Positions 36,001-56,127 of a stretch of DNA of 64,000 nt are shown in pieces (position 1 is the first letter of the stretch; every line of letters starts with the position of its first letter). Origin of the DNA: Naegleria gruberi (Eukaryota); NCBI GenBank assembly GCA_000004985.1, contig GG738858.1, one strand, 5' to 3'. Under the pieces are notes generated by a model. It was given only the letters and a program-made list of their open reading frames with translations, was not told where the DNA came from and ran no database searches. The translations under genes were made by a program, and so were the position numbers.

Positions 36001-38306
36001 NNNNNNNNNNNNNNNNNNNNNNNNNNNNNNNNNNNNNNNNNNNNNNNNNNNNNNNNNNNNNNNNNNNNNNNNNNNNNNNNNNNNNNNNNNNNNNNNNNNN
36101 NNNNNNNNNNNNNNNNNNNNNNNNNNNNNNNNNNNNNNNNNNNNNNNNNNNNNNNNNNNNNNNNNNNNNNNNNNNNNNNNNNNNNNNNNNNNNNNNNNNN
36201 NNNNNNNNNNNNNNNNNNNNNNNNNNNNNNNNNNNNNNNNNNNNNNNNNNNNNNNNNNNNNNNNNNNNNNNNNNNNNNNNNNNNNNNNNNNNNNNNNNNN
36301 NNNNNNNNNNNNNNNNNNNNNNNNNNNNNNNNNNNNNNNNNNNNNNNNNNNNNNNNNNNNNNNNNNNNNNNNNNNNNNNNNNNNNNNNNNNNNNNNNNNN
36401 NNNNNNNNNNNNNNNNNNNNNNNNNNNNNNNNNNNNNNNNNNNNNNNNNNNNNNNNNNNNNNNNNNNNNNNNNNNNNNNNNNNNNNNNNNNNNNNNNNNN
36501 NNNNNNNNNNNNNNNNNNNNNNNNNNNNNNNNNNNNNNNNNNNNNNNNNNNNNNNNNNNNNNNNNNNNNNNNNNNNNNNNNNNNNNNNNNNNNNNNNNNN
36601 NNNNNNNNNNNNNNNNNNNNNNNNNNNNNNNNNNNNNNNNNNNNNNNNNNNNNNNNNNNNNNNNNNNNNNNNNNNNNNNNNNNNNNNNNNNNNNNNNNNN
36701 NNNNNNNNNNNNNNNNNNNNNNNNNNNNNNNNNNNNNNNNNNNNNNNNNNNNNNNNNNNNNNNNNNNNNNNNNNNNNNNNNNNNNNNNNNNNNNNNNNNN
36801 NNNNNNNNNNNNNNNNNNNNNNNNNNNNNNNNNNNNNNNNNNNNNNNNNNNNNNNNNNNNNNNNNNNNNNNNNNNNNNNNNNNNNNNNNNNNNNNNNNNN
36901 NNNNNNNNNNNNNNNNNNNNNNNNNNNNNNNNNNNNNNNNNNNNNNNNNNNNNNNNNNNNNNNNNNNNNNNNNNNNNNNNNNNNNNNNNNNNNNNNNNNN
37001 NNNNNNNNNNNNNNNNNNNNNNNNNNNNNNNNNNNNNNNNNNNNNNNNNNNNNNNNNNNNNNNNNNNNNNNNNNNNNNNNNNNNNNNNNNNNNNNNNNNN
37101 NNNNNNNNNNNNNNNNNNNNNNNNNNNNNNNNNNNNNNNNNNNNNNNNNNNNNNNNNNNNNNNNNNNNNNNNNNNNNNNNNNNNNNNNNNNNNNNNNNNN
37201 NNNNNNNNNNNNNNNNNNNNNNNNNNNNNNNNNNNNNNNNNNNNNNNNNNNNNNNNNNNNNNNNNNNNNNNNNNNNNNNNNNNNNNNNNNNNNNNNNNNN
37301 NNNNNNNNNNNNNNNNNNNNNNNNNNNNNNNNNNNNNNNNNNNNNNNNNNNNNNNNNNNNNNNNNNNNNNNNNNNNNNNNNNNNNNNNNNNNNNNNNNNN
37401 NNNNNNNNNNNNNNNNNNNNNNNNNNNNNNNNNNNNNNNNNNNNNNNNNNNNNNNNNNNNNNNNNNNNNNNNNNNNNNNNNNNNNNNNNNNNNNNNNNNN
37501 NNNNNNNNNNNNNNNNNNNNNNNNNNNNNNNNNNNNNNNNNNNNNNNNNNNNNNNNNNNNNNNNNNNNNNNNNNNNNNNNNNNNNNNNNNNNNNNNNNNN
37601 NNNNNNNNNNNNNNNNNNNNNNNNNNNNNNNNNNNNNNNNNNNNNNNNNNNNNNNNNNNNNNNNNNNNNNNNNNNNNNNNNNNNNNNNNNNNNNNNNNNN
37701 NNNNNNNNNNNNNNNNNNNNNNNNNNNNNNNNNNNNNNNNNNNNNNNNNNNNNNNNNNNNNNNNNNNNNNNNNNNNNNNNNNNNNNNNNNNNNNNNNNNN
37801 NNNNNNNNNNNNNNNNNNNNNNNNNNNNNNNNNNNNNNNNNNNNNNNNNNNNNNNNNNNNNNNNNNNNNNNNNNNNNNNNNNNNNNNNNNNNNNNNNNNN
37901 NNNNNNNNNNNNNNNNNNNNNNNNNNNNNNNNNNNNNNNNNNNNNNNNNNNNNNNNNNNNNNNNNNNNNNNNNNNNNNNNNNNNNNNNNNNNNNNNNNNN
38001 NNNNNNNNNNNNNNNNNNNNNNNNNNNNNNNNNNNNNNNNNNNNNNNNNNNNNNNNNNNNNNNNNNNNNNNNNNNNNNNNNNNNNNNNNNNNNNNNNNNN
38101 NNNNNNNNNNNNNNNNNNNNNNNNNNNNNNNNNNNNNNNNNNNNNNNNNNNNNNNNNNNNNNNNNNNNNNNNNNNNNNNNNNNNNNNNNNNNNNNNNNNN
38201 NNNNNNNNNNNNNNNNNNNNNNNNNNNNNNNNNNNNNNNNNNNNNNNNNNNNNNNNNNNNNNNNNNNNNNNNNNNNNNNNNNNNNNNNNNNNNNNNNNNN
38301 NNNNNN
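1..38306. other. Assembly/scaffold gap: continuous run of N (38306 nt)
   Basis: All positions are n; the first real base is 38307. Confidence 0.99.
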
Positions 38307-39165
38307 AATTTTTTAAACAAAGAATAAACATTTTATTTGTATATTTACACTACATTAAATAATAAATTAATAATATTAATTAAATTAAATATTAAATTAA
38401 TAATATTAATTAAATTAAATAATAATACTAATATTAATTAATAAATTAAATATTAAATATTAAAGATAATAATTATTATTTTTTAATCTATTTTCATAAT
38501 GTAATAATTGTAATTCAAAACCAGTATTAGGTTGTACAATATTTCTTTTTTGTTTAACGAATTGTAAAGTATTAAAATAAGACCATTGATTTTTTCTCAT
38601 TAAATATGCAATTAAAATGGAAGCACTTCTACTTTTACCTTTCATACAATGTATTAAAACATTTTCATTATTATTTAAACATTTATCAATATAATTAAAT
38701 GATTCATCAAATGTATGATCTATTTGTTCATCTGACATGTCATATAAATGTAAATTTAAATATGAAAATCCTTCATTAGGATAAAATGGTTCTAATGATT
38801 TTACACAAGTTACAATATTTGTTATATTATGATTTTTTAATTCAGGTACATTCATTGCATCATTTATATCTCCTAAATATAAATTATCAGTTATTTTAGA
38901 GGCTAAAAAATTATTTGAATATGGTAAATAATATCTAACTTGTTGATGGGCTTGATAATAATATGATAATACTGATCGGAATATTGATGATTTTGTATAT
39001 TTTACATTATTATTTGTATTATTATTTGTATTGGTATTAATAGTTTGATCATCAGTTGATTGATCAGTAATAGTTGTTGTTGTTGGAGTGGTTGGAGTGG
39101 TTGGAGTATTATTTGAAGCCATTTTTTTTTTAAATGAATTTATTAATAGAAATATCTATTTATTG
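38307..39165. repeat. Tandem direct repeat, copy A (high-identity core: 3' flank + DUSP CDS + ~45 bp upstream of its ATG)
   Basis: Near-identical to 39986..40835. The AT-rich block 38327..38459 is base-for-base identical to 39999..40138. The copy is truncated on the left by the N gap. Confidence 0.9.
38460..39122 (-). CDS. Dual-specificity protein phosphatase (DUSP family), copy 1, 220 aa, single exon
   Basis: ORF with the catalytic motif VLIHCMKGKSRSASILIAYLM (HCxxGxxRS P-loop of Cys-based PTP/DUSP). The N-terminus has a Thr/Pro/Asn-rich low-complexity region. The ATG is preceded by an A10 run. Confidence 0.85.
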   Translation of the reverse strand: MASNNTPTTPTTPTTTTITDQSTDDQTINTNTNNNTNNNVKYTKSSIFRSVLSYYYQAHQQVRYYLPYSNNFLASKITDNLYLGDINDAMNVPELKNHNITNIVTCVKSLEPFYPNEGFSYLNLHLYDMSDEQIDHTFDESFNYIDKCLNNNENVLIHCMKGKSRSASILIAYLMRKNQWSYFNTLQFVKQKRNIVQPNTGFELQLLHYENRLKNNNYYL

Positions 39166-39719
39166 CAAATGAAAAGTGAACATCACGTTTGAAATTAATA
39201 CTTCTTTAGAGGGCTTGGTAATTAATTAAATTTTCAATTTTCTCCTTCATTCACTATTATTTTATATAACAAAGCATCAATATTGAAGGTCTATTGTTAA
39301 TACTCACTGCATCTTTGAAAAAAAACAGATCTTCTTAAGGTGAAATTCATAGAATGTCGTTGAAAATCCAGATGTTTTGTTTAATTTTAAGGCCAACCCA
39401 GATTCGTTTTATATTTCTATGATGTCTTCCTGCGTTTAATTAATAACAATGGTAAGGTCATGTTGACCACGTAATATCATGAACATTTAACTCAACACGG
39501 GAGCTATTGTTATGATAGGCAATCATATTCAATGGTAGTTCTTCGAACTTGTAAATGAGGTACGCTATTGATAACGACAACAATGGATTACAAATAGTCT
39601 AAGTGGTGTTTAGATGTACGCGCAAATTTCGGTTGTTCATTTAATATTTTATTTTAAGTCTATATATTACTGTATATTTCCAATCAACCGCTGTCAAGTT
39701 TGATTTTTGTAACCTGTAA

Positions 39720-39769
39720 NNNNNNNNNNNNNNNNNNNNNNNNNNNNNNNNNNNNNNNNNNNNNNNNNN
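39720..39769. other. Assembly gap (50 N), plus a single ambiguous base at 39812
   Basis: N-run inside the diverged 5' flank of DUSP copy 1. Confidence 0.99.
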
Positions 39770-39985
39770 TATCAAAAGAGAAAGATTAACATGTTAGAGC
39801 TCAATATCTCTATGGCTATATNTCAGCTGTTCAATAGAGATGATATATTGTATAATGGAATCTGTTGCTACTACTACATGGTGCTCTTACTAATTTTGAA
39901 GAAGTGCATCTAATACTACTAAAACTATATTGTTGAGTTTAAAACACAAGAATATCTTTGAAAATCTAGTTGACACACTAATAAT

Positions 39986-40835
39986 AAATTTTTAAACAAA
40001 GAATAAACATTTTATTTGTATATTTACACTACATTAAATAATAAATTAATAATATTAATTAAATTAAATATTAAATTAATAATATTAATTAAATTAAATA
40101 ATAATACTAATATTAATTAATAAATTAAATATTAAATATTAAAGATAATAATTATTATTTTTTAATCTATTTTCATAATGTAATAATTGTAATTCAAAAC
40201 CAGTATTAGGTTGTACAATATTTCTTTTTTGTTTAACGAATTGTAAAGTATTAAAATAAGACCATTGATTTTTTCTCATTAAATATGCAATTAAAATGGA
40301 AGCACTTCTACTTTTACCTTTCATACAATGTATTAAAACATTTTCATTATTATTTAAACATTTATCAATATAATTAAATGATTCATCAAATGTATGATCT
40401 ATTTGTTCATCTGACATGTCATATAAATGTAAATTTAAATATGAAAATCCTTCATTAGGATAAAATGGTTCTAATGATTTTACACAAGTTACTATATTTG
40501 TTATATTATGATTTTTTAATTCAGGTACATTCATTGCATCATTTATATCTCCTAAATATAAATTATCAGTTATTTTAGAGGCTAAAAAATTATTTGAATA
40601 TGGTAAATAATATCTAACTTGTTGATGGGCTTGATAATAATATGATAATACTGATCGGAATATTGATGATTTTGTATATTTTACATTATTATTTGTATTA
40701 TTATTTGTATTGGTATTAATAGTTTCATCATCAGTTGATCGATCAGTAATAGTTATTGTTGTTGGAGTGGTTGGAGTATTATTTGAAGCCATTTTTTTTT
40801 AAATGAATTTATTAATAGAAATATCTATTTTATTG
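39986..40835. repeat. Tandem direct repeat, copy B (high-identity core)
   Basis: Same as copy A, offset by 1679 bp (CDS starts 38460 vs 40139). Diverged homology (~70%, many indels) continues at 40836..~41690 vs 39166..39719. Confidence 0.9.
40139..40792 (-). CDS. Dual-specificity protein phosphatase (DUSP family), copy 2, 217 aa
   Basis: About 97-98% identical to copy 1. It differs by a 9-nt indel in the TTPTT repeat and a few substitutions. It carries the same HCMKGKSRS active site. Confidence 0.85.
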   Translation of the reverse strand: MASNNTPTTPTTITITDRSTDDETINTNTNNNTNNNVKYTKSSIFRSVLSYYYQAHQQVRYYLPYSNNFLASKITDNLYLGDINDAMNVPELKNHNITNIVTCVKSLEPFYPNEGFSYLNLHLYDMSDEQIDHTFDESFNYIDKCLNNNENVLIHCMKGKSRSASILIAYLMRKNQWSYFNTLQFVKQKRNIVQPNTGFELQLLHYENRLKNNNYYL

Positions 40836-42460
40836 AGAAAGTACTCAAATGAAAAGTGAACAATTTTACATTATCATCACGTTTGAAATTAATTTCTCCT
40901 GAGGAAGATTTTGAAAATACTCTTGTCAGAGCGCTTTGTAATTAATTAAATTTTCAATTTTCTCCTTCACATTTTAACTGACTTGAATAATTCACTAAGC
41001 ATTCAACATTGACTCAATTTTGAGCCATTATTTTTATTTTATTGAAAGCTGAAGGTCTATTGTTAGCACTGGATTTTGTAAAAAAGAGATTCTTCTAAGG
41101 TGTGAAATTCATAGAAGAAAAGAATGTCGAATATCCCGATGTTTGATTCACCCCTATGTCTAATAATAAGCGATTGAAGGATTCGTATTTCAAGTCAATT
41201 GTTAGAGGGTTGGAGAATGTGTACGAAATTGGCATCTGCTGAGAGAAAGGACAGTTCGTTTACTCTTTTACAAGACTCCTCTGCAACAATTTGTACATTA
41301 TAGGAAGGCCTTGATTGGTGAGTATAATATACGAATATTATCAAGAAGCGAAGCAGGATCCTATTGTCAAGAGCCAACCAGAAACTGTAGTACACTCCAC
41401 TACTGCTTCTGCTTCTGCTTCAGTAGACCACGTAATATCACGAACATCTAAAACTCACCAAGTTCACTGCTACCGTTATTATTGTCAAGTATATTCACTA
41501 CTATTTTCAAACTTGTATATGAGGTGCAGTTATGAAAACGGCAACAACAAATTGAAACTAGTCTAAGTTGTGTTTTGAGGTACGCATCAGCTGGATACAT
41601 TTAGCTTGGTAATGGTTCATTGTATATTTTGATTAAGTCTATAACTGAATATTTATCCGCTGTTAAGTTTGAATAGCATAACATTTTTGCACTATGGTAA
41701 ACTTTTACGATCCGAGGTGAAACTTTAAGTTTTCTATCAGTATTTATTCTTTCCATTATATTATTTTATTTGCATTGTATATACATCTGTTATGTGTTGC
41801 TACTATTTTCTAAATTGCTAGTATACACACCGACTATCAACGAAGAACTTAATAAATGTCTAACAATACTTTATCAAGAAACTATCACATTAGAAGATCA
41901 ACAATGGAAAATGAATACGCACCTACACACATTTCTATTACTCTGTTGCCTTGTGAATAAATGTAAGTTGTTTTTGTCTCTTGCATAAATAACTATTTGA
42001 TAGGCCGCCTTGATAATTCTTTACTAAATTGTTTTTAATCATCTTTGCAAATTGGGTATGCCTTCTGATTCTCCTCCTGCCTTCATGATTAGTTCTTGGT
42101 TATTAAAATGGTTTGGAGGAAACTGGAAGAGGAGCAGAAAATCTTCCTTTAATGTTGTTCATTCGATTTGATAACTAACAATCCCAGAAGATGTACTTTG
42201 GATAAGAATAATTCATTCAATTACCTGGCGATATTGGAGAGTATGAAGATTGTGGATCGAGTGGAGGAGTCATGTTGGGAACAAACAATCCAGTCAAGAG
42301 TAATCCACTCTCCAATCTTGACATTTCACTTGTTGATAAGCAGAGACTTTTAATGCAAAAATTCAACTTGCCTTTCATTGTGAGAACAGGTTCAACATTT
42401 CAAGATATTCATAATCAAAAAGATGAGAATTTTAAAATTCAAGTTAATTTATTATTGAAT

Positions 42461-43093
42461 TTACAAAGCACCACAATCAGCAATCTTAACTTCAGACAAT
42501 GGAGTATCACGTTGGTTAGTCTTTGATCCTTCAATCTTCTTAATAATTTCATAACCTTCAACAACCTTTCCGAAAACAACGTGCTTACCGTCCAACCATG
42601 GGCATGGAACAGTAGTAACGAAGAATTGGGAACCATTGGTATTCTTACCAGCATTAGCCATTGACAACAATCCTGGAATGGTGTGCTTTTCCTTAAAGTT
42701 TTCATCTTCAAACTTTGTACCATAGATGGACTTACCACCAGTACCATTAAAGTTAGTAAAATCACCACCTTGAATCATGAAATCTTTAATGACTATTTAC
42801 ATGATTGTATTATTAATATTATATTATTATTAATATTATTGTTGGTTAGCAAGTAGTGTTGGTTGGTTGGTTGATATAAATAATTTTAGATTAATAAAGG
42901 CTTGATAATAATATTAAAATAACATACCTCTGTGGAAGATAGAACCCTTGTATCCGAATCCCTTTTCTCCAGTACACAAAGCTCTGAAGTTTTCAGCAGT
43001 CTTTGGGACAATATCATTGTACAATTCAAAGACAACTCTACCAGCTGGGGCAGCACCGATGGTAATATCAAAGAAAACTCTTGATCTAGACAT
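42461..43093 (-). CDS. Cyclophilin A-type peptidyl-prolyl cis-trans isomerase, 165 aa; complement(join(42461..42792,42928..43093)); intron 42793..42927 (135 nt)
   Basis: Exon 1 by hand translation: [55 protein letters not shown]. Then a GTATGT donor, an AT-rich intron and an AATAG acceptor. Exon 2 reads [25 protein letters not shown]...KIADCGAL (supplied ORF 42461..42778). The total of 498 nt gives 165 aa, the canonical cyclophilin A length. Confidence 0.85.
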
Positions 43094-43405
43094 TTTTTTT
43101 CAAGTTTTAAAATATTTTATTAATTCCGTCAAGGTTGAAAAACTTTTTTGATAGGAGCGAGCTTAATCAAGCCTCCACCAACAACACAACAACATTCAAG
43201 TGGCTTTAGTTTACAATAGATTTTGTATTTTCATTTTAACTTACATCATGACTAATTAGATCTTTTCAATTAATTAATACAATAACAAGAATAAGAATGT
43301 TACTAATTTGAAATTTTATTGAATAGTTTTAATTGTTGTTTCATGTATTTTCATTTAAACACAAAGGCTTTTAAATGATCAAAAGTCTAAAATCTATTAA
43401 AATGA

Positions 43406-44866
43406 TTAATCCAAATCATCAAAATTCTTTTCACCACTACCACCACTACCATCATTATCATCACCATGACTACTACCATGACTATTATTATTATTATTAA
43501 TATTATTAATATTATGTTCATGTTGTTGTAAATCTTCATTAAAAGTATTTAAATTAATCATTTGACCATTTTCATCAATTTTAATTAAAGTACCAGGTTT
43601 AACTAAATTTCTAGTTTGAATTGCTTGAATAATTTGATCTAAATTTGAATTATTTAATTCAATTAATTTATCTAAATATGGATGTAAATATTCCAAACCA
43701 AAAGGTAAATCTGAAATTAATTGTAAACATTCAATAGTTAATTGTTGAATAAAAATAGGAAAATTAGAATTTAATTGATAATATAATAAATCAAATAAAT
43801 TTAAATTTGTATCATTTGCATAAATTATATTTGGAATTAAATTTTTTTTAAATAAACAATTTTTTAAAATTGCTAAAATTGATCTTCTTCTTAAACATTT
43901 ATCTTGTTGAATATCTAAATTATTTAATAAATCTAAATTATTATTTTTAAATAATAATAAATGTAAATATGATATATTACAATTATTATTTACAATTATA
44001 TATTTAGCATGATCATTTACACTTAAATTACCTAATATAGTAGGTATTAAATGTGATGATATTAATGATATTTTTAATTCATTCATTGGTCTATTAAAAT
44101 AATTAATTAATTTCATTATATTATATTCTTTTAATTCATCTAAATTATCTGAATCAGAATCAGAATCTGACTCAGTGTCAGAATCATCATCTGAATCATC
44201 TGAATCATTAGATTTTAAATTAGCCTTTTTTAATTTTTTTAAAGTTTCTTCAATTGTTTTCATATTTAAAAATTTTAATCTTGCTTGTTCAGAATTTGAA
44301 GTTAAATTTGATAATAATAATAAAATACATTCTAATGTATCTTTATCATTTTGATTTAATTCATTATTTAATTCTCTTCTTTCCATTTTAATAAAAATAT
44401 TCATTAAAATTTGAATTAAATCATTTTTAACCATTTCATTAAAAAATATAGTTGATTCATCTTGTGATAATAAAATTAAACATGAAATTGATAATTTTGA
44501 TACAAAATGTGATTTATCACTTGTTAAATTAACAAGTGTTTTAATACATTTTTCTAATACTCTAATTGTAAATCTTAAATTATTTAAATATTCTTCAATT
44601 CTTAAAAATTTTAATAAATTTGATAATCCTGTTATACGAACTTGTTCATTATTATGTGAACAAAAATCAATTAATTCTTCAAAACTTTGTTTTTCTTCTC
44701 TTGTTAACATTCCAATATTTGATGATTTTTTAATAGTACTTGTACTAGTAATATTATTATTATTATTATTATTATTAGAATCGTCATCAATTGTTACAGT
44801 ATTAGATAATGATGAAGGCTTGTTGTTGTTGGTAGTAGAAGCCTTGTCGTTGTTATTGTTGGACAT
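43406..44866 (-). CDS. ARM/HEAT-like protein, probable HGH1 (FAM203) homolog, 486 aa, with poly-Asn N-terminus and an acidic Ser/Asp repeat insert
   Basis: Long ORF. Motifs LSNLTSNSEQARLKFL and RRRSILAILKNCLF resemble the conserved LSNLS.....AR.FL and RRGGVVGTLRNCCF blocks of HGH1 proteins. The DSDDSDDDSDTESDSDSDSD tract and N-runs are typical Dictyostelid inserts. Confidence 0.5.
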   Translation of the reverse strand: MSNNNNDKASTTNNNKPSSLSNTVTIDDDSNNNNNNNNITSTSTIKKSSNIGMLTREEKQSFEELIDFCSHNNEQVRITGLSNLLKFLRIEEYLNNLRFTIRVLEKCIKTLVNLTSDKSHFVSKLSISCLILLSQDESTIFFNEMVKNDLIQILMNIFIKMERRELNNELNQNDKDTLECILLLLSNLTSNSEQARLKFLNMKTIEETLKKLKKANLKSNDSDDSDDDSDTESDSDSDSDNLDELKEYNIMKLINYFNRPMNELKISLISSHLIPTILGNLSVNDHAKYIIVNNNCNISYLHLLLFKNNNLDLLNNLDIQQDKCLRRRSILAILKNCLFKKNLIPNIIYANDTNLNLFDLLYYQLNSNFPIFIQQLTIECLQLISDLPFGLEYLHPYLDKLIELNNSNLDQIIQAIQTRNLVKPGTLIKIDENGQMINLNTFNEDLQQHEHNINNINNNNNSHGSSHGDDNDGSGGSGEKNFDDLD

Positions 44867-45159
44867 TTTTTTTTATTCGTATTGGAAGGAATTAGAGTTA
44901 GACCTCACGAATGATGGAAAGGCTTTCCGAAGGCTTTGACTTCAACAAAATAGCTGAATAATATTATTATTATTATGAATAATCTGGTTTATTATTAAAA
45001 CAATTTAGAGATTATTAGTATCTTGACAAAACTTGGTAACTCCCTCACCAAATGCTTCATTCAAAGTTGGTTTTTCAACTTTTAAATTACTAAATTTACC
45101 ATTTTTAATTTCTTCCATTGCTTTCTTTGATATTTTACAATTAGTAATAATTACACATG

Positions 45160-45513
45160 TTACATGTTCTTTGAATGATTTTTACTTAAACCTTTGCATG
45201 ATTCATCATCATCAGGTTGAACAATTGCCTTTTCAAATTTTTCATAAATTTTAGCAATATCATTACAATATAATGTTCTATTTATGGTTGTATATTTATA
45301 TTGAATAGCTATAATCTTTCCATTTTCAGTACATTGTATTGCATCAATTCCTTCCTGATTTACTTTACTTGATAATTGTAATATATTTGGAATGTATTGT
45401 TCTTTTTCTTTACAAATCTTTGTAACAACTCTAAATACTTCTTCAATAGTTAAATTATTATTATTATTATTATTAATATTTAAATTATTAATATTTAAAT
45501 TATTATTATTTAA

Positions 45514-45546
<33 letters not shown>

Positions 45547-46299
45547 ATTTAAATCTTGTAAAGTAATTTGATTATTATTTTCTTTTAAACAAATTAATTT
45601 TGCTTGTGTAAGAAGTGTTTCTGTTATTTCAAATGGTTTAAAAGCAAGTGAAGAATGATGTTCAGTAAAATATGCCAATATATTATATTTTTGATATAAT
45701 TTACTTTTAAATTCATTTTTAATATCAAAATTTTTAATAAAATATTTAAATAAACAACTTGTAAATATTTTTGGTAATTTATATGTATTTGAATGTTCAT
45801 CAATTGTACAATATTGTAATAATTCAATTGGTATTTCAACATTTAATAATCTATCACATAATTTAATATTAAATATTGAACTTAATAATTTAATAATTAC
45901 ATCTTTAGATAAATTTAATTGAATAATTTCACTGTATAAAATATCATTTAGATTTGTTATTAATGATGAAAATCTTGGACTATATTCATAATCATCTTCA
46001 TTTAAATATTTAAATGATTCATTATTTATTAATATTTTTACTATTTTAGGATGAACTACATCTCCTAATAAGGAATGTAAACGATTGAATATTGATGGTT
46101 TAATATTTAATAATAGACTATCTATTTTAATTGATGATTTGATAGTACTACTATATTGAATAGTATTTATATTATTATTATTAATATTACAAAAATATTT
46201 AATATTTAAAATATTATTATGAGATTTAATAAATCTAAAAGATGATGATGCTGATGCTGATGATTTAATAACAGTATTAATATATAATCTAGATAACAT
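45160..46299 (-). CDS. Hypothetical protein, 379 aa, N-terminus resembles a mitochondrial presequence (MLSRLYINTVIKSSASASSSFRFIK); a 3' terminal exon at ~45033..45146 is possible
   Basis: Long ORF with AT-rich coding bias and (AAT)n-encoded Asn/LNINN repeats at 45420..45560. It starts with aaaaacaatATG. Function is not recognisable. Confidence 0.6.
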
Positions 46300-46746
46300 A
46301 TTGTTTTTGATAATGAATTAATAGAATTACATCTCAATAGTGTTGATTATTAAGGTTTTAAATGTGACATCAAATGATGATGATGTGATGGATGAAAATA
46401 TTAAGGTGATAATGATATGGTGATGGTGGTGGTGTGTTACTATGAACAATTGTACATCACATCATCAATAGAGTGTGAATATGACTAGTAGATTTAAATA
46501 CAACACCACTATCATTATCATCATCATTATTATTTTGTTGATATCAATTAATTGTTATTCATATAATATTTAATAATAATAATATTAATTAGTATTATTA
46601 TGTAATATTTGGTTTAAAAGCACAGGCTGACTTTGCTTTCAAACATTAGTAGTAATAATCCACATTGGATTTTGTGTTTAATATTGTGAATATTTTGTTC
46701 AACAAATTAACTGATGATTTTCAAAATAATAATAATAGCTGAATAA

Positions 46747-47787
46747 TTGAATAAAATGTCACCAGCAGTTTCATCAAATAAGAGTAGTAGACATCAACAA
46801 CAACAACAACGAGGAAGTAGTGGAGTAGTAAATCAATCCCAAATAGCCTCCAAATCATCATCATCAACACAACAAAAACCAATTAAATTATTACCAATTT
46901 TACAACAAGCATCAGAGGCTTCTAACAACAAGCCTTCCTCTAACAAAAAGCCTTCTTCAATAATTGAAGAACAACAAAACAAGGCTAGTTTAGTATCGGA
47001 GCCTAAAATTATTAAATTTTCCTCTCTAGTCAATTTAGAATCTATTAAAAATCCATATGATATTGCATCATCCAATCATGATAATAATATAAATTTTAAT
47101 AACAAACATTCATCATTAGATGGTAAAGAAAAACAAATAGCCTTAACAATACGTGAAAAGAAGGAATTGAAACAATTAGAACATTCCAAATATATGGAAA
47201 AATTAAAAGAATATTCTCAAGATATTAAACATACACGTAAAGGTGAAGCCTTTGATATTGAAAATAATAGATATATATCTAGAAAGAATGAATTACAAAA
47301 AGAAATGGATCAATTAACATTTGAAATGAAAAAATTTGTCTATGATCAAACATTTAACAAATCCCAAAATGGAAATATGGTTACAAATCAAGAATTATCA
47401 GAAAAACAAAAATTTAAAATTAAACAAATGATGAAAGAAGAATATAGACAACAAGGTAAAGATGTATCTTCTTTAAATGAAAAGTCTAAATATGTTAATT
47501 ATAAAGAATTTAAACAAGAAAAACAAAAAGAATTAAAAATGGAAAGAATTGAAACTAGAGAAATGATTAAAAATGGAATTTTAGATAAAAAACAATTAAG
47601 AAAAAAGAGATTAATGGAACAACAACGTAAATCTTCACAAACTAGAAAATTTTATGCTAAACATGGTGCTCCTAATGAAATTGGTGTTGCTGCTATTAAA
47701 TCTAAATATGGTAAAGGTGGTGCTGTTGGTAAATGGAAAGGTGGTATGTTACATATTAGGAAGGAAGATTTATATACTTTAAAATAA
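46747..47787 (+). CDS. Hypothetical Lys/Glu-rich coiled-coil protein, 346 aa (nucleolar-type basic tail)
   Basis: Long ORF with poly-Gln and a Ser-rich N-terminus. The C-terminus reads KFYAKHGAPNEIGVAAIKSKYGKGGAVGKWKGGMLHIRKEDLYTLK. An alternative start is the Met at 46756 (aaaATG). Confidence 0.6.
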   Translation: MNKMSPAVSSNKSSRHQQQQQRGSSGVVNQSQIASKSSSSTQQKPIKLLPILQQASEASNNKPSSNKKPSSIIEEQQNKASLVSEPKIIKFSSLVNLESIKNPYDIASSNHDNNINFNNKHSSLDGKEKQIALTIREKKELKQLEHSKYMEKLKEYSQDIKHTRKGEAFDIENNRYISRKNELQKEMDQLTFEMKKFVYDQTFNKSQNGNMVTNQELSEKQKFKIKQMMKEEYRQQGKDVSSLNEKSKYVNYKEFKQEKQKELKMERIETREMIKNGILDKKQLRKKRLMEQQRKSSQTRKFYAKHGAPNEIGVAAIKSKYGKGGAVGKWKGGMLHIRKEDLYTLK

Positions 47788-47855
47788 ATATTTTTATTAT
47801 TTATTTTATTTAATTTAATATTTTATTTAATTATATTATATTATATTATTATAAT

Positions 47856-48181
47856 TTATTTTTTATTTAATAATTCTAATAATTGTTCTTGTTTGTTTTT
47901 TAATAATTCCTTTCTCTTTCTCTTCATAATTTTAACATTATCTTTATAAATTGTTAATTTCTTTGAATTATCTTTTTTAACTTTATCTGCAAGTGATTGT
48001 TTTTCATGTTTCTTTTCATCTCTTTTTTTTCTTCTTTCTAATTTTGATTGTTTCTTTTTATCAGATATTTCCTGTATTGAAGAAGAATCCGATGATGATT
48101 GTTCTGTTTGTTGATTTATTTCAATTGATTGTCTATATTCATCAAAGAGACGAAGTTGAAATTCTAAAAGTGATTTACTCA
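47856..48181 (-). CDS. 3' end of a gene encoding a Lys-rich coiled-coil C-terminus (partial; 5' part lies in the N gap)
   Basis: Hand translation of the minus strand gives an open frame: SKSLLEFQLRLFDEYRQSIEINQQTEQSSSDSSSIQEISDKKKQSKLERRKKRDEKKHEKQSLADKVKKDNSKKLTIYKDNVKIMKRKRKELLKNKQEQLLELLNKK*. The stop is at 47856..47858. The frame is open up to the gap edge. No listed ORF covers this because it has no Met. Confidence 0.55.
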
Positions 48182-49230
48182 NNNNNNNNNNNNNNNNNNN
48201 NNNNNNNNNNNNNNNNNNNNNNNNNNNNNNNNNNNNNNNNNNNNNNNNNNNNNNNNNNNNNNNNNNNNNNNNNNNNNNNNNNNNNNNNNNNNNNNNNNNN
48301 NNNNNNNNNNNNNNNNNNNNNNNNNNNNNNNNNNNNNNNNNNNNNNNNNNNNNNNNNNNNNNNNNNNNNNNNNNNNNNNNNNNNNNNNNNNNNNNNNNNN
48401 NNNNNNNNNNNNNNNNNNNNNNNNNNNNNNNNNNNNNNNNNNNNNNNNNNNNNNNNNNNNNNNNNNNNNNNNNNNNNNNNNNNNNNNNNNNNNNNNNNNN
48501 NNNNNNNNNNNNNNNNNNNNNNNNNNNNNNNNNNNNNNNNNNNNNNNNNNNNNNNNNNNNNNNNNNNNNNNNNNNNNNNNNNNNNNNNNNNNNNNNNNNN
48601 NNNNNNNNNNNNNNNNNNNNNNNNNNNNNNNNNNNNNNNNNNNNNNNNNNNNNNNNNNNNNNNNNNNNNNNNNNNNNNNNNNNNNNNNNNNNNNNNNNNN
48701 NNNNNNNNNNNNNNNNNNNNNNNNNNNNNNNNNNNNNNNNNNNNNNNNNNNNNNNNNNNNNNNNNNNNNNNNNNNNNNNNNNNNNNNNNNNNNNNNNNNN
48801 NNNNNNNNNNNNNNNNNNNNNNNNNNNNNNNNNNNNNNNNNNNNNNNNNNNNNNNNNNNNNNNNNNNNNNNNNNNNNNNNNNNNNNNNNNNNNNNNNNNN
48901 NNNNNNNNNNNNNNNNNNNNNNNNNNNNNNNNNNNNNNNNNNNNNNNNNNNNNNNNNNNNNNNNNNNNNNNNNNNNNNNNNNNNNNNNNNNNNNNNNNNN
49001 NNNNNNNNNNNNNNNNNNNNNNNNNNNNNNNNNNNNNNNNNNNNNNNNNNNNNNNNNNNNNNNNNNNNNNNNNNNNNNNNNNNNNNNNNNNNNNNNNNNN
49101 NNNNNNNNNNNNNNNNNNNNNNNNNNNNNNNNNNNNNNNNNNNNNNNNNNNNNNNNNNNNNNNNNNNNNNNNNNNNNNNNNNNNNNNNNNNNNNNNNNNN
49201 NNNNNNNNNNNNNNNNNNNNNNNNNNNNNN
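48182..49230. other. Assembly gap (1049 N)
   Basis: N-run. The supplied ORFs made of X residues (47993..49309, 48175..49236, 48179..49246) are artefacts of this gap. Confidence 0.99.
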
Positions 49231-49346
49231 TTGCAATATATTCCAAAAAATTAATAAAAATATTTTTTATTTTAATAATATATATAAAAATGGATACAAA
49301 ATTAAATAGTAAATACTACATTAAATTAATAATTATATCATTTAAA

Positions 49347-50265
49347 TTACTTCTTCTTCTTCTTCTTTGCAGCAAGAGCAGCAGCAGCACCACTAACACC
49401 ACTTCCACTTCCAACACCACGTACTTGTTCAGGAGTTAATAAGGTTTTTTGTCCCTTTTTGTGAAGAACTGATTTTTGAGCTTCAACATCTGATGAACCT
49501 TGATGTCCAAATCCCATCAAATTACCTGAATGTTTCTTCTTTGTTTCCCATCTTGATTTAAATGTTTCACTTTGTTCATTTAACATACTATGAATTGGAA
49601 GTTTGTTTCTTCTCTTCTTTCTTTGTTTCTTCTTTTCTTCTCTATTCAATGCATCAGCTTGTCTATTACCACCACCCATTGTTGTTGATGATGATGTCTT
49701 GTTAGATGATGATGATGAATTAATAGATTGAATATCAATTTTACTAATAGAAAGTGTAGAAGTATTAGAAGAAGAAGTAATATTAGATGAAGAAGTAATA
49801 TTTGAAATAATTGATGAAGTCTTTTCAATTTCATCAATATTCTTCTTAATGGATGTAGAAGATGTGAAGATTGTAAATCTTTACAATATTTCTCAGCAGA
49901 ATCAATATCATAAAAAGACATGGCTTCAATTAAACCAGCAGTGTGAAGTGAAACATTTTTAGAATCTAATTTAATTAACATTTCAAAAGTAGATGCAGCT
50001 TGTTCATATTTTTTAAATTGTAATTGTAATTTAGCTAATTCATTTGCCATTTCAATTAAATCTTCCTTTTTAGATGAAGATGATAATTTTTTAATGACTT
50101 GTTGTAACATTTCCAATGCAGAATTCATATCATCAATTTTCATATAAAGTGCAATAATTAAACTTTGAATTGATTTTTCATTAATTAATTTAGATTCTTT
50201 TAATAATTCAATACATTCTTTATATTTACCTTGTTGTAAATATAATTGTACAAGTACTAATTCTA

Positions 50266-50296
<31 letters not shown>

Positions 50297-51878
50297 GTAT
50301 TATTATTAGTATTACTAGTATTAGTATTATTATTATTATTGTTAATATTTTTAATATAATTTTTTAATAATTGAATAGATTGATCAAATTTCTTTTGTTT
50401 AAAATATAAATGTGATAAAATTAAAGTTGGAATTTCTGAATTATTATACTAAATAAATTAAATAATTCATTTTGAATAATTTTTTCACATTCATCAAATT
50501 TACCTAAATGTAATTGTAATAAACAATTATTTAAAGTAACACCTCTAATTTGTTCAGTTGTTAATTTACCTTGTAATTTATCTTGATAAGCATGTTTTAA
50601 TTTCTTTTGAGCTTCCAAATCAAAATGTGTTGTATTACCATTATTAGAATTACTATTATTAGTAGTTACATCTAAAATAGCAACAAGATTATTAGCAGCA
50701 ACTGCACCTGCAACTGTATCTTTAGATTGTGTAAAAACTTGTTCAAATAATTTTTTAGAAACATCAACTTGTCCATTTAAATATTTAACATAAGCTAATT
50801 GTACTAAAATGGAAGAAATTTCATTTGTATCTTCAATTTTACATAATTTTTGTGCAAATTCTAAATATTTCTCAGCTTGTTCATAATCTTTTAATCCAAT
50901 AGATNNNNNNNNNNNNNNNNNNNNNNNNNNNNNNNNNNNNNNNNNNNNNNNNNNNNNNNNNNNNNNNNNNNNNNNNNNNNNNNNNNNNNNNNNNNNNNNN
51001 NNNNNNNNNNNNNNNNNNNNNNNNNNNNNNNNNNNNNNNNNNNNNNNNNNNNNNNNNNNNNNNNNNNNNNNNNNNNNNNNNNNNNNNNNNNNNNNNNNNN
51101 NNNNNNNNNNNNNNNNNNNNNNNNNNNNNNNNNNNNNNNNNNNNNNNNNNNNNNNNNNNNNNNNNNNNNNNNNNNNNNNNNNNNNNNNNNNNNNNNNNNN
51201 NNNNNNNNNNNNNNNNNNNNNNNNNNNNNNNNNNNNNNNNNNNNNNNNNNNNNNNNNNNNNNNNNNNNNNNNNNNNNNNNNNNNNNNNNNNNNNNNNNNN
51301 NNNNNNNNNNNNNNNNNNNNNNNNNNNNNNNNNNNNNNNNNNNNNNNNNNNNNNNNNNNNNNNNNNNNNNNNNNNNNNNNNNNNNNNNNNNNNNNNNNNN
51401 NNNNNNNNNNNNNNNNNNNNNNNNNNNNNNGCTAATAATAATTCATTAGTATTATTTAATTCATTTCTATTAGATTGAATAATTTTCAAGGCTTCCTCTG
51501 CTTTATTTAATCTATACAAGGAATAAATCTTTTGAAAATTAGTGGATTGCAAATTTTCAATAACCTTGTTAAATTCTCCTTTTTGAATTTGATTAACAAT
51601 TTTTAATTGTTTTAATTGATTATTATTCTTATCATTGGATAATACTATTATTATTATTATATGATGAAGATGATCAAGATGGTAATGTTGATGATTAATA
51701 TGAAAGACGGAGAAGAAGATTAATACAGATAAGATTAAAATGATGATGAATATATATTCAACTACTACTAATATAACAACATACACTTTTCCAATGTAGA
51801 ATGAATTAAATCTTCATCTTCATCTTCGATGGCTTGTTTTAATTGTTGATAATTGGACAAGAGATTCTTTGGTGCCAT
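49347..51878 (-). CDS. srp72: Signal recognition particle 72 kDa subunit (SRP72), multi-segment model: exon 1 51785..51878, intron 51645..51784, exon 2 from 51644 into the gap, then 50894 down to 49347; interrupted by an N gap and three frame disruptions
   Basis: Exon 1 (MAPKNLLSNYQQLKQAIEDEDEDLIHSTLEK + GTATGT donor) was found by hand. The TPR-like blocks IYSLYRLNKAEEALKIIQS, AGAVAANNLVAIL, ELFNLFSIII, IPTLILSHLYFKQKKFDQSIQLLKNYIK and MKIDDMNSALEML...AEKYCKDL align along SRP72. The C-terminal tail KKKQRKKRRNKLP...SRWETKKKHS...KKKKKK* matches the SRP72 basic RNA-binding tail. The supplied ORFs 49347..49679, 49646..50143, 50421..50618 and 50881..51786 are fragments of this gene in different frames. 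Confidence 0.75.
50262..50345. repeat. (ATT)n/(AAT)n trinucleotide microsatellite inside the SRP72 coding region (poly-Asn tract)
   Basis: A perfect (att)9 at 50267..50293 flanked by imperfect att/agt repeats. The reading frame changes across it. Confidence 0.85.
50895..51430. other. Assembly gap (536 N) inside the SRP72 gene
   Basis: N-run. Confidence 0.99.
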
Positions 51879-51959
51879 TGAATTTTTTTTTAATTTTAGA
51901 ATTATTTTAAAGCCTTGAAATTCTCACTGTGTCTTCTTCATGCTGATGACATCATCACA

Positions 51960-52030
51960 CAACAAGCCTTTTTATTCTTATTCTTTTCTTGAGAATAAAA
52001 TTTAGGAAGAAGAATTAAAAAGGCTTGTTG
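51960..52030. repeat. 14-bp perfect inverted repeat (CAACAAGCCTTTTT ... AAAAAGGCTTGTTG), 43-bp spacer, in the divergent srp72/rac intergenic region
   Basis: Left arm 51960..51973. The right arm 52017..52030 is its exact reverse complement. Confidence 0.8.
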
Positions 52031-52521
52031 ATACTACAAGACTAATGTATCACATAATGCTCTTTGTATCATAATAATAATAAATCCAACATTGATCGAT
52101 CAATGAAAATTTAGTCTTCATCAATATTGTTTTCACCAGGTTGAAAAGTAAAATTCCTTCCAATTCAAAGATAAGTGATGGAAACTTTCCTTCACGAATA
52201 ATAACAAACTAACAATTAGCCTCTTCAACTTACCATTAGACCAATAACAATAATATGAAGAATGAACAACACAATGAATACAAACGCTCCCAATCTTTCA
52301 TCAATCAAATGTCATCTACACAAAAAAAATATTTCATCTCCTCCAACGTTAGTTTGTGTGCTGCTGTGAGGTTTTCAAAAGGCTTTTAAAAAACAAACAA
52401 CAACAACATTTACTCAATAGTAGTAAAAAACCATCAATAATAATAGTAATAATATTATATAACATAATATATTTACACACACACATAAATATAATTGTAA
52501 ACAACAATATAGTAGAAAAAC

Positions 52522-53481
52522 ATGACTGACGACGATTCACAAGAAGAAGGAAATTACGATCAAATTAAATGTGTTGTTGTAGGTGATGGTGCTGTTGGTA
52601 AAACATGTAGGTTTTAAAATTCCCGCGCTTTTAATCATCTTTTTAAACTTTGTAAAATAATAATAATAATAATTACTGATAGGTTTATTATTATCATATA
52701 GTAATAATGAATTTCCAGATGGTATGTATTTCTATTTAATTAAGTATCATTGAATGTGATAATGATGATGATAATGATGATTATTGTTATTGTTATTAAT
52801 TAATTAATTTAGAATATATTCCAACTATTTGTGACAATTATAGTAGTAATGTTGAATATAAAGGACATACTGTATCATTGGCACTGTGGGATACAGCTGG
52901 ACAAGAAGGTATTTATTTTACAATAATTGTAATCTCTTTAACATCATTATTTTAACATGTATTAATTCATAATAATATTCATGATAACAAAATAACATAA
53001 CAAAATAATATAACATAACAACATAATAGAATATGATCAATTACGTCCATTATCATATCCAGATACAAATGTATTTTTGGTTTGTTTTTCAGTTGTCAAT
53101 CCATCATCATTAGAAAATGTTAAAAGTAAATGGGTACCTGAATTGAAACAATCATGTCCAGATACACCCATTGTTCTAGTTGGATCTAAAATTGATTTAA
53201 GAAATGATCCAGAACAAAAAAGGAAACTCCAACAAAAAGCTTCACAACCTCTAACTGAAAAAGAAGGAGAACAAATGAAAGTAGAAATTGGTGCTAATTT
53301 CTATAGAGAATGTTCAGCAAAGACAATGGAAGGACTTGCAGATGTATTCGAATGTGTCATTGAGGCACATTATCAACATTTATTATCAAAGAAGGATACT
53401 GAAAGTTCAAATAATCAAAATTCTAAATCTGGTAAAAAAGGTGGAAAAGATAAGAAAAAGAAAGATTGTTTAATCATGTAA
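52522..53481 (+). CDS. Rho-family small GTPase (Rac-like) with polybasic tail and CAAX box (CLIM), 223 aa; join(52522..52606,52683..52721,52813..52908,53030..53481)
   Basis: Exon 1 [28 protein letters not shown] (P-loop), GTAGGT donor. Exon 2 [19 protein letters not shown] donor. Exon 3 [32 protein letters not shown] (switch II DTAGQE), GTATTT donor. Exon 4 is the supplied ORF 53077..53481 (...[14 protein letters not shown]...[15 protein letters not shown]). All three introns (76, 91 and 121 nt) are AT-rich, end in AG, and keep the frame. Confidence 0.85.
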
Positions 53482-53654
53482 TATTTAATACATTTTAATA
53501 TATTTTAATATTTAAAATAATTGTTTTTTTTAGTGTTTTTAAAAATCATTGTTGTAATCCATGATGAATTAATATGAGTGAAACTTTGCCAAGTCAATGT
53601 TGATGAGTCATAAAATGTTTCATGTGAAAGCAAACTTTCAAAAAGAGAAGGAAA

Positions 53655-53670
53655 GGGGATCCTCTAGAGT
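53655..53670. other. Cloning-vector polylinker remnant (GGGGATCCTCTAGAGT = SmaI half-site + BamHI + XbaI of pUC18/19-type MCS) at a contig end
   Basis: Exact 16-nt match to the pUC multiple cloning site downstream of a blunt SmaI insertion. It sits immediately before the N gap and is GC-rich relative to its surroundings. Confidence 0.7.
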
Positions 53671-54048
53671 NNNNNNNNNNNNNNNNNNNNNNNNNNNNNN
53701 NNNNNNNNNNNNNNNNNNNNNNNNNNNNNNNNNNNNNNNNNNNNNNNNNNNNNNNNNNNNNNNNNNNNNNNNNNNNNNNNNNNNNNNNNNNNNNNNNNNN
53801 NNNNNNNNNNNNNNNNNNNNNNNNNNNNNNNNNNNNNNNNNNNNNNNNNNNNNNNNNNNNNNNNNNNNNNNNNNNNNNNNNNNNNNNNNNNNNNNNNNNN
53901 NNNNNNNNNNNNNNNNNNNNNNNNNNNNNNNNNNNNNNNNNNNNNNNNNNNNNNNNNNNNNNNNNNNNNNNNNNNNNNNNNNNNNNNNNNNNNNNNNNNN
54001 NNNNNNNNNNNNNNNNNNNNNNNNNNNNNNNNNNNNNNNNNNNNNNNN
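53671..54048. other. Assembly gap (378 N)
   Basis: N-run. The supplied ORF 53638..56127 runs through it as X residues. Confidence 0.99.
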
Positions 54049-56127
54049 TCTTTTATGATTTGATTTAAAATTTAAATTTAAAGAAAATAAATCTTCACTT
54101 TTTAAAATTTTAGAATTTCCATTTTTAATTAAAATATTTTTCATTGTTAAAGGTAAAATTAAATTTTTTAATTCATTTAAATTTAAATTTAAATTTTCTA
54201 AAATTTCAAAACATTTAATTTCCAAATTAGTATTAAATAATAATAAAATTAAACATTGATATTCATTTACATGTAAATCATATTCACTTCCAAATCTGGC
54301 AATTAATTGACATGTACCAAGTGAATGTATCCATTTTAATATTCTATTTTGAGTAATTGAATTATAAAAATTTAAAAATAAATTTAAACAATTATTAAAT
54401 TCATTTGGTAATTTTAATTTTAAATTTAATTGAATATAAATGGAAGGCCAAATTCCATTTGTTAAAATTTGTGGATTAAATTCTATTTTATTATTATCAT
54501 TAGTTATATTATTATTTCCATTTATATTATTAATTAAATAATTTTTAAATTTAAATTTTAATTCATTTGAATTATTTAAATCTTTAATCATTCCTTCTAA
54601 TTTAAAAGTAAATGAATTTCCCATTTTTAATTTTAATTTATAAATTAATTGTTTTTCCAATTCAATTTCTTGATTTTTAATTAATTTTTTACATAAAAAT
54701 CTTTTAAAAAATTCTAAAAATAAATCTTTATCATTTAAATAGGAAAATAATAATAAAATATTTTCAATATTTAAATTAAATTCAAAATATTTAACTAGAA
54801 TTTCAGGAAAATCTAAATTTTCATTTACTAAATTTGTAAATGACTGAAATAAAAATTGTTGAAAATAAAAATTATCTTTAAATTCAAATTTAATTAAATT
54901 ACTAAATTTAGTATTTAATTTTAATAAATTTGTAATATATTCATTTGAATCATTTTTAATTAATTCTTTTCCTTCTTTAATTATTACTTGTTTCATTGAA
55001 TTTGCTAATTTTGGTAATTCATTTACAATTTCAAATAATTTAAATAAGATTTTTAATTCTTTAATATTAAAATTATTAAATATTTCAATTGATTCTAATA
55101 ATAAAATTTCTAAATTATTTAAAATTAATTCTTGATTTAAATTTTTAAATAATTTTTTAATGGTTGAATTTGGAAAGAAAAAGGAATTTTTATCTTCAAA
55201 AATTAAAATATTTTCAATTTCTTTAAATAAATAATTATTTTCTAATTTCCATTTTTGATTTAATTGTTTAAAATATAAATTTGATAAATTTAAAAATTCA
55301 TTTTCAAAATCCAAGTAAATTGAATTTTCCTTATATAGATTTAATTCATTTGATAATTCAATTAAATATAAAATTCCATTTTTTAATAAATTTTCATTAA
55401 TAATTTCAAAATTTCTTTTTTTTTCATATTTTTCCAAAATTAATTTAGAAAAATTATTTTTAATTTCCAAATAAATAATTTTAAAATAATTTTCAATTGC
55501 AATTTGTTTTAAATTTGATTTTTGAAATTGTTCTATAAAAGATCTTTCAATGTAATTAAATAATTTTGTAAAATATTTAATAATAATTAAATAATCTTTC
55601 CATTTTTGTATACATTGATTTAAAAATAAATCTCCATTTAAATTTTTTAATTGATTTAAATTATTATTTAAAAATTTTATAATAATTTTTTCATATTTAA
55701 TATAAATTAATTCTTTTGAAATTTCTAAATTTAAACATAAATTATAAATGGATGAATAAATAATTAAATAGTCTTGACTTGATGAATTTAAATTTTCTAA
55801 AAATTGTAAAATTCCTTTTTTAATTATTTTCCATTGTTTTTTAAATAATTCATATTCATCATTGTTATTATTATCACTACTAGATGAATTATTTGAAATA
55901 CTATTGAAAAGTTTAATTTTCTTTTCTTGATGAATAAATTCATTACTTGTTGATTCAAAAGTTGATGATTGTAATAAATTAGAGTTGACTTGATGATGAT
56001 CGGAATGTGATGGTGATGATAAGGAACATGATGACAATGTATTATTGATAGTATCCTCATCATCATCTAAACAAGAAGATAATTGACAAGATTTTCGTTT
56101 TTTAGGAACATTTCTTCTGAAATTCAT
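54049..56127 (-). CDS. Cullin-family protein (E3 ubiquitin-ligase scaffold), N-terminal ~690 aa present; C-terminal cullin-homology/neddylation region lost in the gap
   Basis: Open frame from the ATG at 56127 (MNFRRNVPKKRK...). Cullin signature blocks: DKDLFLEFFKRFLCKKLI (cf. DKDVFE.YYK..LA.RLL), GNSFTFKLEGMIKDL (cf. CG..FTSKLEGMF.DM) and ILKWIHSLGTCQLIARFGSEYDLHVNEYQCLILLLFN (cf. L.W...LG.c.L...F......L.VS..Q..VLLLFN). Confidence 0.7.

Follow-up and report, generated by a model that had tools for sequence, protein, structure and literature searches.

Why should two adjacent genes be almost indistinguishable from their 3' flanks to just upstream of their start codons and only about 70% identical beyond? 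This question is raised by two copies of a small phosphatase gene, here called copy 1 and copy 2, in a 64,000-nucleotide stretch of Naegleria gruberi contig GG738858.1 (assembly GCA_000004985.1), which is referred to below as the window. An earlier note on this DNA had read the change in identity as gene conversion or a very recent partial re-duplication. We find that the change is real, that it is graded, and that it separates an old upstream spacer from a young gene and 3' flank. The reading we favor, to which we give about an even chance, is a real N. gruberi–specific duplication in which gene conversion or an unequal crossover recently homogenized the gene and 3' flank and left a graded edge. 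The host is N. gruberi NEG-M and not, as the note had supposed, a dictyostelid; the encoded proteins are 100% identical to those of NEG-M, and the locus is colinear with that of N. fowleri.

Identity along the two units

The interval 38307-39719 and its counterpart 39986-~41707 form the only repeat pair in the window. The two units were aligned with MAFFT and compared in 50-column windows, by statistics on zones of the alignment and by a maximum chi-square test with 1000 permutations. The paired segments 38307-39161 and 39986-40830 differ by five substitutions, a 9-bp repeat indel and a 1-bp poly-T indel in 855 columns. Within them, the 3' flank is identical at 152 of 153 positions, the sole mismatch being the third base after the N run that precedes copy 1. 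The complete identity of this flank described in the earlier note holds for the stretch it cited, although it paired 38327 with 39999 instead of 40006, an offset of seven bases. The coding sequence (CDS) is identical at 649 of 653 aligned bases (99.4%) and additionally carries the 9-bp indel, a copy-number change in the repeat GTTGGAGTG (2.9 versus 1.9 copies). The lower figure of ~97-98% given previously is reached only by counting every gap column (98.0%). The 1-bp poly-T indel adjoins the ATG.

Identity falls in steps from 99.9% through 97% and 89% to ~70%. Columns 4-740 are identical at 736 of 737 positions (99.86%), and columns 741-855 at 102 of 105 (97.1%) with 10 gap columns contributed by the 9-bp and 1-bp indels; these two zones differ in identity (Fisher p = 0.007). 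Columns 856-994 are ~89% identical and contain three segments of 11, 14 and 26 bp present only in copy 2. Beyond column 994, 66-72% of the aligned columns are identical and copy 2 is ~320 bp longer. The first structural difference (39162/40831) lies 40 bp upstream of the ATG; from about there, indels occur and the identity of aligned columns drops to 66-76%. The maximum chi-square breakpoint for substitutions is at column 994 (39249/40969), with a chi2 of 298 that was reached in 0 of 1000 permutations. Divergence is therefore strongly heterogeneous along the 50-column windows and not uniform, and the heterogeneity between zones is far beyond chance. The sharp fall upstream of the gene had been placed ~45 bp from the ATG and described as a single abrupt drop to ~70% with many indels; the fall and its final level are confirmed, but it begins slightly nearer the start codon and proceeds stepwise.

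The upstream ranges initially proposed as counterparts (39166-39719 and 40836-~41700) were correct, and the spacers are genuine colinear homologs by BLAST (E = 2e-23, 3e-21 and 3e-9). Colinear homology of this strength (E = 2e-23, 3e-21) requires that the units descend as a whole from an older common source. A tract of higher identity is thus embedded in homologous, more diverged sequence (99.4% versus ~70%), with its 5' edge as the only visible one. The sequence to the left of copy 1 is hidden by the N run 1-38306, and the left limit of the tract is therefore not visible. The suggestion that a conversion tract spans the gene and 3' flank agrees with the high identity found there, but the left end of that tract is a contig edge, which does not fix its length.

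Silent and non-coding sites bear on how recent the identity is. Four substitutions separate the coding sequences, one synonymous and three non-synonymous (n = 4). The proportion of synonymous differences (pS) is 0.008, from one difference over ~125 synonymous sites, and that of non-synonymous differences (pN) is 0.0057, with all three non-synonymous changes located in the low-complexity N-terminal region rich in Thr and Asn. Transcripts of the two copies can be told apart by the 9-bp indel and by three substitutions at 39047-39090. In the spacers, the substitution divergence K is 0.29-0.39. Immediately downstream of the stop codon, both copies carry an AT-only minisatellite with the unit ATTAAATAATAAATTAATAATATTAATTAA (30-bp x 3.5), and this mutable type of sequence is identical in the two 3' flanks, which argues that the identity reflects recency rather than constraint. 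Purifying selection was excluded as an explanation by the near-identity at silent sites together with the identical minisatellite, in agreement with what had been argued from the conserved non-coding flank. The low pS and the identical 3' flank, set against a spacer K of ~0.3, indicate that the gene and 3' flank share a much younger ancestor than the spacers do, by our estimate from these divergences one roughly 50 times more recent. Every explanation needs these two time depths, an old spacer beside a young gene and 3' flank.

A duplication followed by homogenization would have proceeded as follows. The phosphatase gene, located next to a cyclophilin gene, was probably single-copy in the Naegleria ancestor. 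An older lineage-specific duplication would have copied the gene with at least 0.9 kb of 5' spacer, after which the spacers would have diverged (K about 0.3) and copy 1 would have been shortened by many small segments that copy 2 retains. Much later, non-allelic gene conversion or unequal crossover would have overwritten one copy with the other over a tract of at least 855 bp, from the readable 3' flank through the entire CDS to 40 bp on its 5' side. The graded 5' edge may represent several conversion events of differing reach or a heteroduplex edge. This sequence of events is supported by a spacer divergence of ~20-30% and a length difference of ~320 bp, which are far above the levels of false duplicates (PMC2864568). 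Additionally, both open reading frames (ORFs) are intact with the CX5R motif, and no other repeat, transposon or tRNA signature points to an alternative origin of the spacer.

Encoded phosphatase, upstream spacer and gene order

Both copies are predicted to encode an atypical dual-specificity phosphatase that is small and composed of a single domain. The two translations pass the gathering cut-off of Pfam DSPc (PF00782; 106.4 and 106.3 bits, cut-off 33.5) and contain the active-site motif HCMKGKSRS with HCX5R intact. Copy 1 corresponds to GenBank EFC46621 (100% identical), a partial model covering only the C-terminal 143 aa, and copy 2 to EFC46622 (217 aa, 100% identical), named 'dual specificity protein phosphatase'; both are on the 782,252-bp N. 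gruberi NEG-M scaffold, which carries NAEGRDRAFT_65508 to NAEGRDRAFT_65513. The nearest relatives, from N. fowleri, N. lovaniensis and Willaertia, show 58-67% protein identity, and no N. gruberi relative other than these two neighboring models, which share a scaffold, was found at E <= 1e-10. The two copies share with the DSPc family the domain match, the HCX5R(S) motif and the small single-domain architecture, whereas the Thr/Asn-rich low-complexity N-terminus is species-specific. Every amino-acid difference between the copies falls within this N-terminus.

The coordinates of the two units and of the N runs in the window are collected in Table 1. The copy 1 spacer is colinear with that of copy 2 and ~320 bp shorter; it lacks many short segments that copy 2 keeps, and at least two of the copy 2–only segments are bordered by 3-bp microhomologies (ATC and AAT, read from the alignment). 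The extra segments of copy 2 include stretches of 11, 14, 26 and 40 bp as well as ~300 bp within 41130-41421. The GC content of the spacer, 30-41%, is high against the AT-rich genes of the window and near the genome mean of 35% (PMC6125883).

Table 1. Positions of the phosphatase units, their flanks and the N runs
Feature	Coordinates	Strand	Description
N run	1-38306		Directly adjoins copy 1 3' flank; assembly gap or masked sequence
Copy 1 3' flank	38307-38459	-	6-13% GC; 30-bp x 3.5 AT minisatellite at 38354-38458
Copy 1 CDS	38460-39122	-	Intact ORF, 220 aa, DSPc
Copy 1 proximal 5' region	39123-39161	-	Same as copy 2 except 1-bp poly-T length
Copy 1 divergent 5' spacer	39162-39719		558 bp, 22-33% GC, no ORF, ends at 50-N gap
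N run	39720-39769		50 N
Copy 2 contig start	39770-39985		216 bp; ambiguous base (1 N) at 39822; no homolog elsewhere in readable window
Copy 2 3' flank	39986-40138	-	AT minisatellite at 40033-40137, same as copy 1
Copy 2 CDS	40139-40792	-	Intact ORF, 217 aa, DSPc
Copy 2 proximal 5' region	40793-40830	-	Matches copy 1 region
Copy 2 divergent 5' spacer	40831-41707		Homologous to 39162-39719
Remaining non-coding spacer	41708-42460		Reaches cyclophilin gene stop codon
N run	48182-49230		1049 N
N run	50905-51430		526 N
N run	53671-54048		378 N

Other identities for the spacer were considered and rejected. A transposon or long terminal repeat (LTR) origin was not supported by terminal inverted or direct repeats, by other copies in the window or by tRNA genes nearby. 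The spacer contains only short ORFs, none with a Pfam match, and its indels are not multiples of three, and a coding function was set aside; its longest ORF has no homolog among 1.84 billion proteins. A structured RNA was likewise rejected, with no Rfam family matched, and a search of metagenomes for exact matches to the spacer returned none. Finally, a retrocopy was considered, as a plausible transcription start lies close to the beginning of the high-identity tract, but the spacers stay homologous beyond this point and no poly(A) was found in the readable flank.

Gene order around the locus is conserved among Naegleria species. The interval 42459-54741 of the window is colinear with N. fowleri VFQX01000037.1, in which the order is HGH1/DUF383, cyclophilin, a leucine-rich repeat (LRR) gene on the opposite strand, phosphatase, Ank and a 632-aa gene; around its phosphatase gene, N. 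lovaniensis shows the same arrangement (LRR, phosphatase, Ank, 580-aa gene). The N. gruberi accessions run from EFC46619, the ortholog of the 632-aa gene, through EFC46620, EFC46621, EFC46622 and EFC46623 to EFC46624 (HGH1-like). This order matches that of the relatives and indicates that gene order is conserved across the N run. A second phosphatase paralog of N. lovaniensis is dispersed at an unrelated locus. The earlier proposal to date the duplication from orthologous loci found relatives that are single-copy at this locus, but the non-coding DNA of N. fowleri and N. lovaniensis does not align with that of N. gruberi and gives no date. The second N. gruberi copy, judged from these comparisons, would be either lineage-specific or spurious.

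The LRR gene itself differs between the species. It encodes 2744 aa between cyclophilin and phosphatase in N. fowleri and 2642 aa directly upstream of phosphatase in N. lovaniensis, in the place where N. gruberi has a 1.67-kb non-coding spacer (40793-42460). A comparison of 40793-42460 with the locus records of the relatives (L006 12873-22750 and L001 1122-9732) detected no similarity with tblastx or blastn at a cut-off as loose as E <= 10, and the spacer was thus rejected as a decayed relic of that gene. The difference represents a loss, gain or relocation in the N. gruberi lineage.

Three further observations concern neighboring genes. A 379-aa asparagine-rich ORF (45160-46299, minus strand) lies between the HGH1-like gene and the ortholog of a 383-aa N. 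fowleri gene; it has no Pfam domain and no match in the corresponding N. fowleri interval, where the flanking genes are 89 bp apart, and it may be an N. gruberi–specific gene or insertion. Rfam gives a weak hit to mir-598 at 46405-46531 (plus strand), with 27.7 bits where the gathering score is 69 (E = 0.021), which is almost certainly due to chance. The 347-aa EFC46619 model starts at the equivalent of residue ~236 in its 632-aa N. fowleri ortholog (L001 13011-14909), with the N-terminal third missing or not conserved, and may have been shortened by the poor assembly of this region.

Assembly setting and rival explanations

The assembly is a Sanger draft of a heterozygous diploid, and N makes up 63% of the whole window. 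The 50-N gap between the units (39720-39769) is the only round-number gap, the others measuring 1049, 526 and 378 N, and it looks like a placeholder rather than a size estimate. From 38307 to 64000, five N runs of at least 50 N occur in ~26 kb, counting the leading 38-kb run that ends at 38306, and GC content is ~25.5% against the genome mean of 35%, which marks the region as unusually rich in AT and poorly assembled. The phosphatase gene of N. fowleri is followed within ~2.3 kb by the next two genes, at the place where the window has at least 38.3 kb of N; in N. gruberi, the accessions that come next on the scaffold are the counterparts of those genes (EFC46619 and presumably EFC46620). It is thus unlikely that the N run 1-38306 stands for a real 38-kb insertion devoid of genes, and it is probably an over-sized gap or masked sequence. 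Leftward of the first differences that discriminate between the copies, each contig continues for roughly the length of a Sanger read before it stops (740-855 bp in copy 1 and about 960-1,060 bp in copy 2), and the ambiguous base at 39822 lies at the copy 2 end. These positions are compatible with a two-copy repeat left unresolved and also with a haplotype bubble. To choose between the two, one would need to know if the 38-kb N run is masked sequence or a true gap, on which the window alone is indecisive.

Gene conversion or re-duplication, as first suggested, is the natural explanation if the copies are real paralogs, but the duplication itself depends on a 1.4-kb contig bounded by N. Although both copies are in one scaffold, copy 1 is known solely from this 1,413-bp island (38307-39719) between the 38-kb N run and the 50-N gap that separates the units, and MAFFT aligned it with the copy 2 contig from its first readable base to its last. 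These facts weigh against the favored duplication, as do the heterozygosity described for N. gruberi NEG-M (PMC9928731) and the single phosphatase gene at the locus in each of N. fowleri and N. lovaniensis. With an assembly contig N50 of ~160 kb (PMC6125883), the region is unusually badly assembled and a 1.4-kb contig is anomalous. Exact-protein look-ups with both copies and the GenBank models, together with metagenome scans, yielded no independent N. gruberi sequence, and the scans revealed no species closer than N. fowleri and N. lovaniensis for a tree-incongruence comparison. Several of these features suggest the main rival, a false (heterotype) duplication, which we regard as possible but less likely than the favored reading. 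Under this explanation, there is one gene per haploid genome, with the 1.4-kb contig representing its other allele; the assembler would have failed to merge haplotypes that differ strongly in the 5' spacer and would have set them side by side with a placeholder gap. The change in identity would then mark where a hyper-divergent allelic segment ends, or else the limit of a tract of loss of heterozygosity or allelic conversion. Adjacent duplicates on one scaffold with a gap between them, here of 50 N and the only round-number one, are a primary hallmark of such errors (PMC9516828). In its end-to-end match to a neighbor, the short contig is also similar to 'duplicated contained contigs', 30-52% of which proved to be mis-assemblies in three Sanger genomes, mostly <2 kb (PMC2864568). 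Alleles may differ by as much as the 0.6% seen over the shared 855 columns, the ambiguous base near the copy 2 contig start is as expected from a single read end, and the heterozygous genome, the single-copy relatives and the anomalously small contig in a Sanger draft all agree. However, false duplicates have a median identity of 98.1% and were screened at >95% identity over >93% of the contig (PMC2864568), a screen that copy 1 fails, as 40% of its contig is only ~70% identical and the lengths differ by ~320 bp. Alleles 20-30% apart right beside sequence 0.1% apart would themselves need an unusual history, and should the 38-kb N run be a true gap, then neither contig extends to the left and the locus resembles an unresolved two-copy repeat more than merged alleles.

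Other arrangements leave the copies real, or the conversion out. The small contig could be a dispersed second paralog, misplaced through reads sharing the near-identical gene, in which case the two-tier identity would still come from conversion or a recent secondary duplication. A tiny contig bounded by N runs on both sides is consistent with this, mate pairs anchored in an 855-bp near-identical repeat would presumably be ambiguous, and N. lovaniensis does have a dispersed paralog; the unit was nevertheless copied with its upstream region, for which local duplication is the simplest route, and the two adjacent models are the only N. gruberi relatives found at E <= 1e-10, making a dispersed copy unlikely. 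It is more doubtful still that alleles or very young paralogs keep an ancient hyper-divergent regulatory haplotype (20-30%, with multiple indels) beside a homogenized coding region. Such a haplotype would be a long-maintained cis-regulatory polymorphism or a regulatory subfunctionalization of a signaling phosphatase in a heterozygous, rarely sexual amoeba, in which recombination or conversion would keep removing divergence as far as ~40 bp from the start codon. A single recent duplication of the whole unit without conversion, in which one spacer decayed very fast or the spacers are independent insertions of a dispersed repeat, is the least credible. The many short segments lost from copy 1, at least two with 3-bp microhomologies, are what relaxed constraint might leave, but substitutions ~50 times as frequent in the spacer as at silent and 3'-flank sites could not have accumulated in the same time. 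The insertion variant is opposed by the absence from the spacer of terminal repeats, a tRNA target, further copies in the window, a protein homolog in the 1.84 billion searched and a match in the relatives.

Duplication followed by homogenization continues to be the reading we favor. The presence of both copies in one haploid genome and the mechanism of homogenization are what we infer; the draft assembly is unable to separate gene conversion from misassembled alleles. It would be premature to count EFC46621 and EFC46622 as the expansion of a gene family in N. gruberi before a long-read check, and Nanopore data for NEG-M exist (EBI BioStudies S-BSST1363, cited in PMC12344493).

Comparison with known duplications

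The phenomenon is ordinary under every reading, being either concerted evolution or a false duplication. The heterotype false duplications described in other genomes (PMC2864568, PMC9516828) share with this locus a contig of <2 kb that matches its neighbor end to end, adjacency, a gap and a heterozygous host, as well as an apparent extra gene model (here the partial EFC46621). In contrast, those duplicates are ~98% identical throughout, whereas 40% of the N. gruberi contig is at ~70% identity with large length differences. If the second copy is an artifact, it points to an allelic segment of unusual divergence in NEG-M and adds one more false gene to a widely used reference genome.

As a real duplication, the locus would be an ordinary example of concerted evolution, with a conversion edge at the promoter, so that identical enzymes would be encoded downstream of differing 5' regions. 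The human gamma-globin pair HBG1/HBG2 is an example of tandem duplicates evolving in concert through non-allelic gene conversion. The N. gruberi copies differ from that pair in that they are not proven to reside in one haploid genome and in that one end of the tract lies under an N run. What the two systems have in common is a tract of near-identity that includes silent and non-coding sites and, within a colinear duplicated unit, ends abruptly against much older flanks.

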